From a virus (taxonomy: Duplodnaviria; Heunggongvirae; Uroviricota; Caudoviricetes), in the IMG/VR virus record IMGVR_UViG_2537561944_000042: 57,168 nt of DNA; one strand, given 5' to 3'. Shown here piece by piece: positions 12,649-14,034 of the stretch. The translations under genes and the position numbers were made by a program. Under the pieces are notes generated by a model. The model had not been told where the DNA came from, searched no databases, and saw only the letters and a program-made list of their open reading frames with translations. The first letter of the stretch is position 1, and every line of letters starts with the position of its first letter.

Positions 12649-14034
12649 ATTTTCCTGATGACCCCATCGACATAGTATTTTTTCAAAGCAAGAATTGCCT
12701 TCTCGCTATGTATTCCTGATAGCTTGATCAGGATATCAAAGTCTCTTTCAGATATATTCCCCTTTGTCATGTGTCACTCCATGAATCAAATTTCATAGTA
12801 ATCAATCTTTCTTTGATCGACTTATAGATAATAAGATCAGAAATGATAAAAAAGTAACGCATATTTCTTCTCGTCATGTCTACTTATAAAATTCAAATGA
12901 ACTAACCTGAACTACTTACACTGGAATATCATTATATTGGAATAATTATAAAACTGAACAAAATGGTCAATGTAATCTGGTTAATTTATAAATATTTACA
13001 TTGCGTGATGATATTTAATTCCAGTGTTAAGTAATGTCACATGCCTATTATTGGTTACTACTTTGTAGGTGTTTTGGTTCGGCGTTAATATCATTGGTCA
13101 TAATCACCTGTGAAAGTTTATTCTTGAAATGTTATAGGTATATTACTTGCAATTAAAAATGAGAAATTTATTATTATTGTGTTTTGCAAATATAATAATT
13201 AAAAATTTATTATAAATTATGATTAGAATTGACAATATAAAAGAATAATAAAACTCAATATGAAAATAATTATCATCTGGTTTGATACTTTTGCTGTTGA
13301 TTACAGGAATAAAGTGTCAGAATAATATTGTTATTGGGTAAAAAAAGCCTCCACTATATGTGGAGGCAAACCCTTAGATAGTTCTATTGAGGCAAGTATG
13401 TTATAAATCTGCCTTATCTTTTATAGCATATAAAGATATGTATGCTATATTTTTTTGAAGAAATTTTTCCAGAAATTACAGTAATACAAGAAATATTAAC
13501 TGGTGTGATTTTTGGATGTTTAATAAGTACAGTGTACTTATATTTTTGTAATAAAGATGAACGCGTCCTTTAGATAAACTGAAAAATATTAAGCATGTCT
13601 CATGTGGTTTTCTGAATCAAAACTCTTTTCAGTCTTTGATTTTTTGTTAAAAACAGGTTTATTGCAAGGGTGTTGTTGTGAAATGTGTTTTGGTGTCGTT
13701 GTGATTTTATGGTGATAATGTGAATTTTTATCCTTTCAAGATGGCTCCCTGGACGTTAAATACAGTGGAAATTTATATTAAGATATAAATATAACTATTG
13801 CGTTATTTAAATTATTGTCTATTACAGCTCCAGTTAATAGAGCCTGAAGTAATTTCTTAGTATTTCATCATAAGCGTTTATCTATCGTCTCTTTCTAAAT
13901 TAACCGGTCGTATTACAAGGTGCTGAATCTGATTAAGGAATGATACTTAGGGGATTATGGCTGACTTAATAATTAGATAACTGATAAATGACTATCAGGG
14001 GGATATCGTTAAGTCAGCCTTTAAAATCAAGCGA
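12649..14034. other. AT-rich spacer (~1.4 kb) with no ORF of 60 aa or more
   Basis: No track ORFs; long A/T runs; lies between IS3-like element and the integrase 3' end. Confidence 0.5.
13341..13368 (-). terminator. candidate rho-independent terminator (minus strand)
   Basis: Perfect 8-bp stem GCCTCCAC / GTGGAGGC with 5-nt loop, followed on the minus strand by a run of seven T. Confidence 0.4.

Follow-up and report, generated by a model that had tools for sequence, protein, structure and literature searches.

The stretch of DNA that separates an IS3-family insertion sequence from the 3' end of an integrase gene, at positions 12649 to 14034 of the window (the whole 57,168-nt stretch that was analysed), raises the question of what 1.4 kb of very AT-rich sequence without any sizeable ORF represents at such a place. 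Decayed cargo, an H-NS-silenced region and a small-RNA or small-protein locus had been offered in the initial annotation. The comparisons presented here indicate that region 12649-14034 is probably the native upstream control region of a gene for a PapB-type regulator, along with codons 1-40 of that gene, and that the cargo of its island has been lost. The region is mostly an ordinary relic, in which a conserved element with a terminator and a small upstream ORF are kept. Nothing describing the region was found in the literature on argW islands and on SPATEs. The coordinates of the features are given in Table 1.

Table 1. Features of region 12649-14034 and its borders, in window coordinates
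Feature	Position	Strand	Remarks
IS3-family insertion sequence, 1233 bp	11416..12648	+	frameshifted transposase; left border of the region
51-aa fusion ORF (papB' joined to IS end)	12615..12770	-	Pfam PF03333 and RefSeq product name
Upstream ORF, 36 codons	12767..12877	-	31 codons from second ATG at 12862; stop overlaps papB start as ATGA
Conserved block C, papB-like promoter and 5' UTR (predicted)	12771..13029	-	65-97% identical to Salmonella, increasingly so nearer the ATG
Variable spacer 2	13030..13340	.	unalignable between E. coli and Salmonella; polymorphism-rich
Intrinsic terminator	13340..13367	-	8-bp stem, 6 G-C pairs, 5-nt loop, T7
Conserved block B	13341..13504	-	conserved from near 13504 exactly up to the T-run
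Possible extended -10 element TGcTATAAA	13428..13420	-	predicted RNA of ~73 nt (about 13413..13341) ending at the terminator
Variable spacer 1	13505..13958	.	no E. coli/Salmonella conservation
Nested hairpin immediately past the int stop	13959..14019	-	fold z-score -3.6
Integrase stop codon	14035-14037		right border of the region
P4-type tyrosine integrase pseudogene	14035..15252 (pieces 14035..14526, 14560..15252)	-	internal stop

The position and general character first reported for the region hold: it lies exactly between the end of the insertion sequence and the integrase stop codon, its GC content is 28.9% as compared with 46.4% for the whole window, and an ORF scan yielded no ORF of at least 60 aa on either strand. 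The lowest-GC stretch of 1386 nt in the window (28.7%, starting at 12670) falls in this region, within which the local GC content dips to 24-28%, and A/T runs of at least 5 nt occur at 9.4 per kb, as against 3.7 per kb across the window. The longest ORF lying entirely within the region has 43 aa; in 2000 shuffles of the same sequence the mean longest ORF was 57 aa, with values of at most 43 aa in 13% and of at least 60 aa in 37% of the shuffles. A scarcity of ORFs is thus expected from the base composition, and it is the composition, not the absence of ORFs, that is the unusual trait of the region. Silencing by H-NS is plausible, judging from the 29% GC and the density of A/T tracts. A scan of the window for tRNA and tmRNA genes found none, and no Rfam 15 family matched the window at its gathering threshold, the best sub-threshold match being Arrc14 (32 bits, with a gathering score of 99).

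The region is not wholly non-coding. It contains on the minus strand the truncated gene papB' (12649-12770) and the 36-codon upstream ORF, the stop codon of which overlaps the papB start. The truncated gene is part of a 51-aa fusion ORF, in which codons 1-40 (12770..12649) represent the N-terminus of a PapB/FocB-family regulator and the last 11 codons come from the inverted repeat of the IS3-family element, whose right inverted repeat adjoins codon 40. Against profile PF03333 this ORF scores 41.7 bits (cut-off 29.4; E 1.2e-10) and covers profile positions 19-57 of 91, so that the domain is incomplete; the intact 76-aa relatives from E. coli (P0018) and Salmonella (P0014) score 65 bits and cover positions 19-87/88. 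The C-terminal 36 residues of the 76-aa regulator are exchanged for the 11 IS-derived residues in the fusion. The PapB-type regulator also matched the structure of FocB (PDB 3m8j) at E 4e-9. The truncated PapB-family gene had been overlooked in the initial annotation; it is the key to the identity of the region.

The IS3-family element, labelled 'IS3 family transposase, frameshifted' by RefSeq at a 99.9%-identical O26:H11 locus, lacks a target-site duplication (flanks ATC and ATT). The breakpoint reads AAAAT/AGCTTGC in intact islands and AAAAT/TGATCC in the window, the part after the stroke belonging in the latter case to the element, and IS-less derivatives have the same papB breakpoint to within 6 bp. 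A site-specific recombination site was considered as the origin of this shared breakpoint and rejected in favour of IS-mediated deletion, because intact islands run papB through it and the element has no target duplication.

Intact islands have the order argW, integrase gene, a gap of ~1.26-1.27 kb, a 76-aa papB-like gene and a gene for a Rob-like regulator, and the latter pair faces a gene for an EspC-like autotransporter (SPATE) and a chaperone-usher fimbrial operon. Over positions 12649-14037, the window shares 97-99% identity with this gap in intact E. coli islands, as against 65% overall with the Salmonella version. The gap between the integrase gene and papB measures 1264 nt in the E. 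coli type and about 1200-1223 nt in the Salmonella type, and is equally ORF-free in the intact islands of both. The comparison with intact relatives that the initial annotation had called for hence shows the same ORF-free gap, but a papB gene that is complete (76 aa) there. A six-frame Pfam scan of the region, in which hidden pseudogenes and a papI-like gene were sought, matched nothing besides PapB. Because the 1.26 kb next to papB' has no Pfam match and is ORF-free in intact E. coli and Salmonella islands, it is a native intergenic leader and not a degraded pseudogene. The suggestion of decayed cargo thus applies to the leftmost 122 nt, the papB' remnant cut by the IS3-family element, and not to the other 1.26 kb.

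Among 5426 complete E. coli genomes, one carries the intact island and 237 carry the truncated form, in which the match ends at base 122 of papB. Intact 396-aa versions of the integrase adjoin tRNA-Arg in other strains, while the integrase of O26:H11 11368 bears the RefSeq note 'internal stop'; the gene looks mosaic, with dS ranging from 0.15 to 0.53 along its length. Across all collections searched (protein collections, an exhaustive representative search, species-representative genomes and, by DNA pattern, contigs from metagenomes and viruses) there were just two types, that of E. coli and that of Salmonella, and no third, intermediate lineage. Since there are only two diverged lineages, the comparative power is small, and the conserved blocks described below could partly be recombination tracts.

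The source operon consists of the 76-aa PapB-type regulator gene followed by that of the Rob-like AraC-family regulator, in an island at tRNA-Arg (argW). Read on the minus strand of the window, the intact order is the integrase gene, the nested hairpin, ~450 nt of fast-evolving AT-rich spacer, the terminator block of ~165 nt, ~310 nt of further spacer, a block of ~260 nt with a putative sigma-70-type promoter (TATAAT), 5' UTR and 36-codon ORF, and finally the papB-like and Rob-like genes. The two regulators presumably control the EspC-like autotransporter gene and the fimbrial operon. An IS3-family element would then have entered papB after codon 40, and an IS-associated deletion or recombination would have taken away the remaining operon and the virulence cargo. 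The remnant and the integrase would now be carried together in another island, where the orphan promoter may still fire into the insertion sequence, yet would control nothing. IS-truncated remnants in degraded islands are alike in several respects, namely an IS3-family end (here at codon 40) without target duplication, replaced downstream cargo and relaxed constraint on an orphaned promoter; the present remnant differs from them in being unusually widespread (237 complete E. coli genomes vs one with the intact island).

In the alignment of the E. coli and Salmonella versions, three conserved blocks are set in otherwise unalignable spacer: the nested hairpin after the integrase stop, ~165 nt ending at the terminator (block B), and ~260 nt comprising the predicted papB promoter and 5' UTR (block C). 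A degenerate C/A-rich stretch in spacer 1 (about 13644-13720) is the counterpart of a (CAAAC)n microsatellite in Salmonella. Paralogues of blocks B and C were not found in the window, the intact island or the Salmonella locus. Among 10 intact islands block C has no variable column (0/259, vs 41/765 in the spacers), a deficit with a binomial estimate of about 6e-6, whereas among 13 truncated islands it varies at the rate of the spacers (4/259 vs 13/765), the latter test of relaxed constraint being based on 17 variable columns. A block that is invariant in intact islands and varies at the spacer rate in truncated ones argues for a relic in the window.

Block C carries two perfect TATAAT hexamers (12950..12945 and 12936..12931, minus strand) and, just ahead of the papB ATG, a GGAG ribosome-binding site. 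Its -10 hexamer is conserved; none of the predicted -35 elements is both strong and conserved. The upstream ORF is the only ORF shared between the E. coli and Salmonella versions of the gap, and it is annotated by some pipelines as a hypothetical protein of 31 aa. Between the two versions it shows no indels, the ATGA overlap is kept, and the substitutions (n=10) fall on codon positions 1, 2 and 3 in the numbers 5, 0 and 5. The chance of zero position-2 substitutions is about 0.017, and dN/dS is about 0.2 (dN 0.059, dS 0.30), both values being derived from only these 10 substitutions. The conservation may not be coding-driven, since the papB ribosome-binding site and 5' UTR lie in this stretch as well. 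The upstream ORF resembles known coupled upstream ORFs and leader peptides in its overlap, in its conserved frame and length and in its lack of second-position substitutions; it differs from them in the small number of substitutions, in the double use of its DNA as 5' UTR, and in that the peptide matches no family and an exact look-up returned only unnamed 'hypothetical protein' calls. For the small-protein locus that had been suggested, there is accordingly a candidate, overlapping the papB start, with a peptide that lacks a family match. The check for small ORFs gave this conserved ORF on the minus strand but nothing lasting on the plus strand, where three hydrophobic-looking ORFs (43, 40 and 37 aa) were considered as genes and rejected, none of them being kept in Salmonella.

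The regulatory regions of pap, foc and sfa are similar in that a PapB/FocB-family gene comes first after a long AT-rich non-coding region, and in that the island encodes chaperone-usher fimbriae. Pap-type promoters are repressed by H-NS. Unlike the papI-papB switch of these systems, the locus has no divergent papI-like gene, the plus strand of the region yielding neither a Pfam match nor a conserved ORF. Two GATC sites (12815 and 12835) lie 20 bp apart, as compared with about 102-103 bp in the Dam/Lrp switch of pap, and are absent at the homologous Salmonella positions; with the wrong spacing and conservation of these sites and without a papI-like gene, a pap-type GATC/Lrp phase switch was rejected. 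The regulator is also short (76 aa when intact), the N-terminal stretch of ~25 residues seen in FocB being absent, and its intact gene precedes a Rob-like gene instead of a pilin gene, the copy in the window being cut at codon 40.

The second conserved element contains the hairpin. A perfect 8-bp stem followed by T7 had been reported for the minus strand at 13341..13368; it is present, with coordinates shifted by one base (13367..13340), and reads GCCTCCAC-ATATA-GTGGAGGC followed by T7. Hairpins matching a strict pattern (perfect 8-bp stem with 6 or more G-C pairs, and 6 or more T among the 7 bases that follow) occurred in none of 3000 shuffled versions of the region and only twice across the whole 57-kb window, whereas a scan with a looser pattern gave no excess over chance (1 found, 1.1 expected). 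The stem is identical in E. coli and Salmonella, the sole two changes falling in the loop. The core of block B (13341-13428) is about 90% identical to Salmonella, which is above the coding sequences of papB (85%) and of the Rob-like regulator (79%). Positions 13341-13450 have one variable column among the 10 intact islands (vs 41/765 in the spacers; binomial estimate about 0.02), and two in 110 nt, the rate of the spacers, in truncated islands. The terminator block most likely stops integrase read-through into the regulator operon, and it may also form the 3' end of a candidate small RNA.

That block B does no more than end the integrase transcript, or insulate the regulator operon against read-through, without a separate RNA gene, is a reading of somewhat less than even probability, in which the conservation upstream of the hairpin would stem from a processed or stabilising 3' end of the integrase mRNA or from a recombination tract. 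The hairpin lies on the integrase strand, 670 nt downstream of the gene, and no other strong terminator lies between int and papB; a convincing conserved promoter is lacking within block B; and the integrase gene is exchanged among islands and mosaic-looking, so that local high identity can result from recombination. However, the 450 nt between the integrase gene and block B are unconserved, which one would hardly expect of a functional 3' UTR; the integrase stop is directly followed by another structure, the nested hairpin; and conservation breaks off just where the T-run ends, not at the arbitrary end of a tract.

It is doubtful that block B is an independent small-RNA gene of ~73 nt, transcribed from the extended -10 promoter and surviving in truncated islands. 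The product would be made up of single-stranded A/U-rich sequence, the terminator hairpin with its 8-bp stem, and U7, and would act in trans, in the Hfq-type manner, on mRNAs of the island or the core genome. The sharp limits of the block (from near 13504 exactly to the T-run) amid unalignable spacers, a core identity above that of both regulator coding sequences, the invariant stem with its loop-only changes and the low polymorphism in intact islands are consistent with such a gene, as are a fold z-score of -3 to -4, the lack of an ORF conserved between E. coli and Salmonella in the block, and a TATAAA -10 that is kept in both lineages. The TG extension, however, occurs in E. coli only, the -35 is weak, no Rfam family matches (the best match is the one given above), and block B varies at the spacer rate in truncated islands. 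Consensus folding of the block showed no covariation and supported the terminator only, the upstream hairpins, including the 5' hairpin, being broken in Salmonella, and the candidate RNA paired no better than shuffled controls with the papB 5' UTR and upstream ORF or with 17 translation-start regions of the island.

Small RNAs encoded in islands are known from enterobacteria, e.g., the Isr RNAs of Salmonella and the sRNAs of the EHEC O-islands. Block B is similar to them as a short, conserved, ORF-free element with its own terminator in AT-rich acquired DNA near an integrase gene; it is dissimilar in lacking an Rfam family, covariation and a predicted target, and so ranks as a candidate. Of the small-RNA locus first suggested there remains, correspondingly, a conserved stretch of low polymorphism, ~90-165 nt long and ending at the terminator. 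If it is indeed a small RNA, it would persist in hundreds of E. coli strains (O26, O111, O103, some ST131 and APEC) that lack the virulence cargo of the island, and might still act on core-genome targets. The broader proposal, in which a ~73-nt small RNA specific to argW islands and common to E. coli and Salmonella is combined with gating of papB by a translationally coupled leader ORF, is unlikely. It is very improbable that all 1.4 kb derive from coding cargo, as one pseudogene or several, decayed past recognition: the island in the window is visibly degraded (internal stop in the integrase gene, frameshifted IS3 transposase, truncated papB), but the six-frame search matched PapB alone, intact islands with working neighbours show the same ORF-free gap, the upstream ORF is the only frame common to both lineages, and the length of the gap is alike in the two.

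On the preferred reading, the odd AT-rich gap is explained as a control region orphaned from its regulator gene, and a remnant that is widespread in E. coli is tied to a rare intact argW island that occurs in Salmonella as well. The 51-aa 'PapB/FocB family regulator' annotated in RefSeq genomes by the hundred is a fragment fused to IS sequence and ought to be labelled a pseudogene. Two small conserved elements, the block with the terminator and the overlapping upstream ORF, make cheap experimental targets, of interest mainly for the way in which horizontally acquired islands with adhesin and toxin genes are regulated. Current understanding is not challenged by these results.

The nested hairpin has an 11-bp outer stem (GGCTGACTTAA / TTAAGTCAGCC) and an inner CTGATAG..TTATCAG, with no T-run after it. 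Salmonella and an unrelated argW island (L004) both keep it, one pair showing a compensatory CG-to-UA change, and positions 13915-14034 are found at 89% identity in 29 other E. coli genomes without the rest of the region. The plasmid collection gave one match, a 1.4-Mb record with the same sequence, and the truncated remnant was found in several E. coli lineages.

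The AT-rich region at 12649-14034 is mainly ordinary: an orphaned leader together with the 5' stub of a regulator gene, probably left behind when an insertion sequence (IS) removed the cargo of a virulence island. The very high A/T content reported in the initial annotation was borne out (28.9% GC, compared with 46.4% over the whole window); of all 1386-nt stretches in the 57 kb, the one poorest in GC falls here, with local dips to 24-28%. Likewise, no ORF of at least 60 aa was found on either strand, yet this absence is expected from base composition and adds nothing beyond it (longest ORF 43 aa, versus a mean of 57 aa in 2000 shuffles, 13% of which reached 43 aa or less). 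A/T tracts occur at 9.4 per kb in the region versus 3.7 per kb in the window. AT-rich DNA is an expected target of H-NS in xenogeneic silencing, and binding of H-NS to the region would be expected because of its 29% GC and its A/T tract density.

A 51-aa ORF missed by the initial annotation matches Pfam family PF03333 (profile positions 19-57 of 91) and is assigned from this match to the N-terminus of a PapB/FocB-family regulator (papB'); a six-frame Pfam scan of the region yielded no match except PapB. The codons following codon 40, eleven in number, derive from the IS inverted repeat. In RefSeq the ORF is named 'PapB/FocB family fimbrial expression transcriptional regulator' (WP_000160236.1), an ordinary CDS in hundreds of genomes; as a truncated papB'-IS fusion fragment it merits a pseudogene flag. 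The DNA of the region is present in 242 complete E. coli genomes at an identity of at least 95%, 240 of which reach 99% or above, and RefSeq gives the ORF its PapB/FocB name in these genomes. At each locus examined, papB' adjoins the same integrase gene, and also the tRNA-Arg gene argW unless a prophage intervenes.

Among 5.8 billion proteins, a word-indexed search gave truncated versions only. An exhaustive search of 1.84 billion representatives recovered P0014, a protein of 76 aa that extends beyond the breakpoint into a typical PapB C-terminus, its cluster comprising one Salmonella enterica form and one E. coli form (P0018). All contigs of the P0014/P0018 type share one architecture: argW, an integrase gene (396 aa), a gap of some 1.2-1.27 kb in which no gene is called, the papB-like gene (76 aa), a gene for a Rob-like AraC-family regulator (282 aa), on the opposite strand the gene for an EspC-like serine-protease autotransporter (SPATE; 1311 aa, 1179 bits to PDB 9mne_B), and a chaperone-usher fimbrial operon that includes a second PapB/FocB gene. 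Window positions 12649-14037 match this gap at 97-99% identity in the intact E. coli islands and at 65% in the Salmonella version. The region is therefore the native intergenic leader of the regulator operon, not eroded cargo. Comparison with intact relatives, as the initial annotation had suggested, thus found the gap native and ORF-free in E. coli and Salmonella functional islands as well, which argues against a degraded pseudogene; the proposal of decayed cargo holds for 122 nt only, the papB' stub.

The intact island is exemplified by positions 17293-37790 of locus L024 (E. coli Eco_23-2667) and by loci L016-L023; it occurs in many draft assemblies and in one of 5426 complete E. coli genomes, 237 of which carry a match ending at papB base 122. 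In the S. enterica version the SPATE gene is split into pieces. No published description of the intact argW island was found in a literature search.

Across the breakpoint, intact papB reads ...AGGAAAAT|AGCTTGCTTTGAC, and the window has the same papB bases followed by the IS end TGATCC instead of the native AGCTTGCTTTGAC. The IS3-family copy has no target-site duplication, being flanked by ATC and ATT, and on its far side lies the 3' flank of an unrelated gene encoding an HsdR N-terminal-domain protein. The remainder of papB and the cargo were therefore probably lost through IS-associated deletion or through recombination of IS copies. Two rare derivatives without the IS, L005 and L007, have junctions lying 3-6 bp away from the IS one, with different cargo beyond, and are read as probable secondary IS-mediated deletions; past the junction lies the HsdR N-terminal-domain protein gene in one and Hha/UCP007319/AlpA genes in the other. 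A site-specific recombination site at the shared breakpoint was rejected, because intact papB genes run through it uninterrupted.

Features of the AT-rich region and its flanks, with identity of the window (E. coli type) to the Salmonella version
Feature	Position	Strand	Size	Identity	Remarks
IS3-family element	11416-12648		1233 bp		right inverted repeat is left boundary of region
papB' ORF	12615..12770	minus	51 aa		
Upstream ORF	12877..12767	minus	36 codons (31 from second ATG)		TGA overlaps papB ATG
Block C	13029-12771	minus	259 nt	65-97%, rising toward papB ATG	promoter, 5' UTR, upstream ORF
TATAAT hexamers	12950-12945; 12936-12931			unchanged	second recovered as -10 element in both lineages (promoter scan)
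Spacer 2	13340-13030	minus		unalignable	no feature identified
Block B	13504-13341	minus		75-90%; core 13428-13341 about 90%	ends at terminator
Terminator hairpin	13367..13340	minus			followed by T7
TATAAA -10 element	13428-13420				in both lineages; TG extension in E. coli only
Spacer 1	13958-13505	minus		unalignable	C/A-rich stretch
Block A	14037-13959	minus		62-80%	nested hairpin just past int stop
Nested hairpin	13959-14019	minus			11-bp outer and 7-bp inner stem, no T-run
P4-type integrase gene (int)	14035-15252				stop codon is right boundary of region; internal stop between 14526 and 14560

Comparison of the two lineages divides the region into three conserved blocks and two spacers (see table); for scale, E. 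coli and Salmonella are 85% identical in the papB coding sequence, 79% in the Rob-like gene and 92.5% in int. The nested hairpin of block A (fold z-score -3.6) is shared with the Salmonella island and with L004, an unrelated argW island of E. coli, and shows one CG-to-UA compensatory pair; it travels with the integrase gene, not with the cargo. In spacer 1, the Salmonella gap carries a perfect (CAAAC)n microsatellite of 11.2 copies (L010 9086-9141, corresponding to window positions ~13644-13720). Its copy number varies between Salmonella strains, since the int-papB gap ranges from 1318 to 1348 nt in six loci and differs only in 5-nt steps. The E. coli counterpart is degenerate C/A-rich sequence and a local SNP hot spot; lying upstream of the regulator operon, the repeat could be prone to slippage.

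The terminator-like hairpin of the initial annotation, GCCTCCAC-ATATA-GTGGAGGC, is real and conserved, one base away from the position first assigned. None of 3000 shuffled versions of the region contained a hairpin of comparable quality, and only two exist across the whole window; the stem is invariant between E. coli and Salmonella, the sole two changes being in the loop. Block B conservation stops exactly where the T-run ends. Block B may serve as a terminator ending integrase transcripts, or as an insulator against read-through into the regulator operon, a tentative reading that we rate highest; it lies on the int strand and holds the only strong terminator between int and papB. Not fully exclusive of this, and rather doubtful, is a small-RNA gene with a product of ~73 nt, the form in which the earlier small-RNA idea survives as a concrete candidate. 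The conserved TATAAA element, the lack of a conserved ORF in block B, the sharp conservation boundary at the T-run and fold z-scores of -3 to -4 are consistent with such a gene, whereas the -35 element is weak, no Rfam family matches, covariation is absent, the 5' hairpin is disrupted in Salmonella, complementarity to the papB leader and 17 island start regions does not exceed shuffled controls, and no constraint is visible in the truncated clade (13 islands).

The earlier suggestion of a small protein likewise has a concrete candidate in the upstream ORF, whose length and frame are identical in Salmonella. Its 10 substitutions fall 5/0/5 on codon positions 1/2/3 (dN 0.059, dS 0.30), with a chance of about 0.017, by our own arithmetic, of no second-position change. 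The pattern hints at a coupled leader ORF that is translated, although substitutions are few and the DNA doubles as the papB 5' UTR. The peptide has no family match and only sporadic hypothetical-protein calls.

Variable alignment columns were counted in 10 intact E. coli islands and 13 truncated ones. The intact islands had 0 in block C (259 nt), 1 in the block B core (13341-13450, 110 nt) and 41 in the spacers (765 nt), for which our binomial estimates are about 6e-6 in block C and, in the block B core, about 0.02. The truncated islands had 4, 2 and 13, respectively, so that blocks B and C both vary at the spacer rate (small numbers). The direction is as a relic predicts, with a promoter block that would have been constrained while driving the regulator and would now be drifting, on small numbers.

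The nearest known system is the regulatory region of pap/foc/sfa with its PapB/FocB regulator (FocB 3m8j, E 4e-9). Unlike those systems, the island has a short regulator followed by a Rob-like regulator gene, not a pilin gene. A Pap-type phase switch was rejected because of this arrangement, because the region has no papI-like gene, and because 20 bp separates its two upstream GATC sites, neither of which is conserved.

The window belongs to the O26:H11 type and contains no tRNA gene, because a torI-carrying prophage separates the island from argW. In this strain the island is probably immobile; its integrase gene has an internal stop. Relative to O26:H11 strain 11368, about 1.26 kb at 17238-18502 is additional in the window, which at ~9593 is without the IS3 copy that interrupts the HsdR N-terminal-domain protein gene in that strain. 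A 3-kb contig (L015, DYYI01000083.1) from a metagenome-assembled genome labelled Aliicoccus persicus (a Gram-positive coccus) matches this E. coli sequence, IS3 junction included, at 99.7% identity, which points to contamination of the bin.
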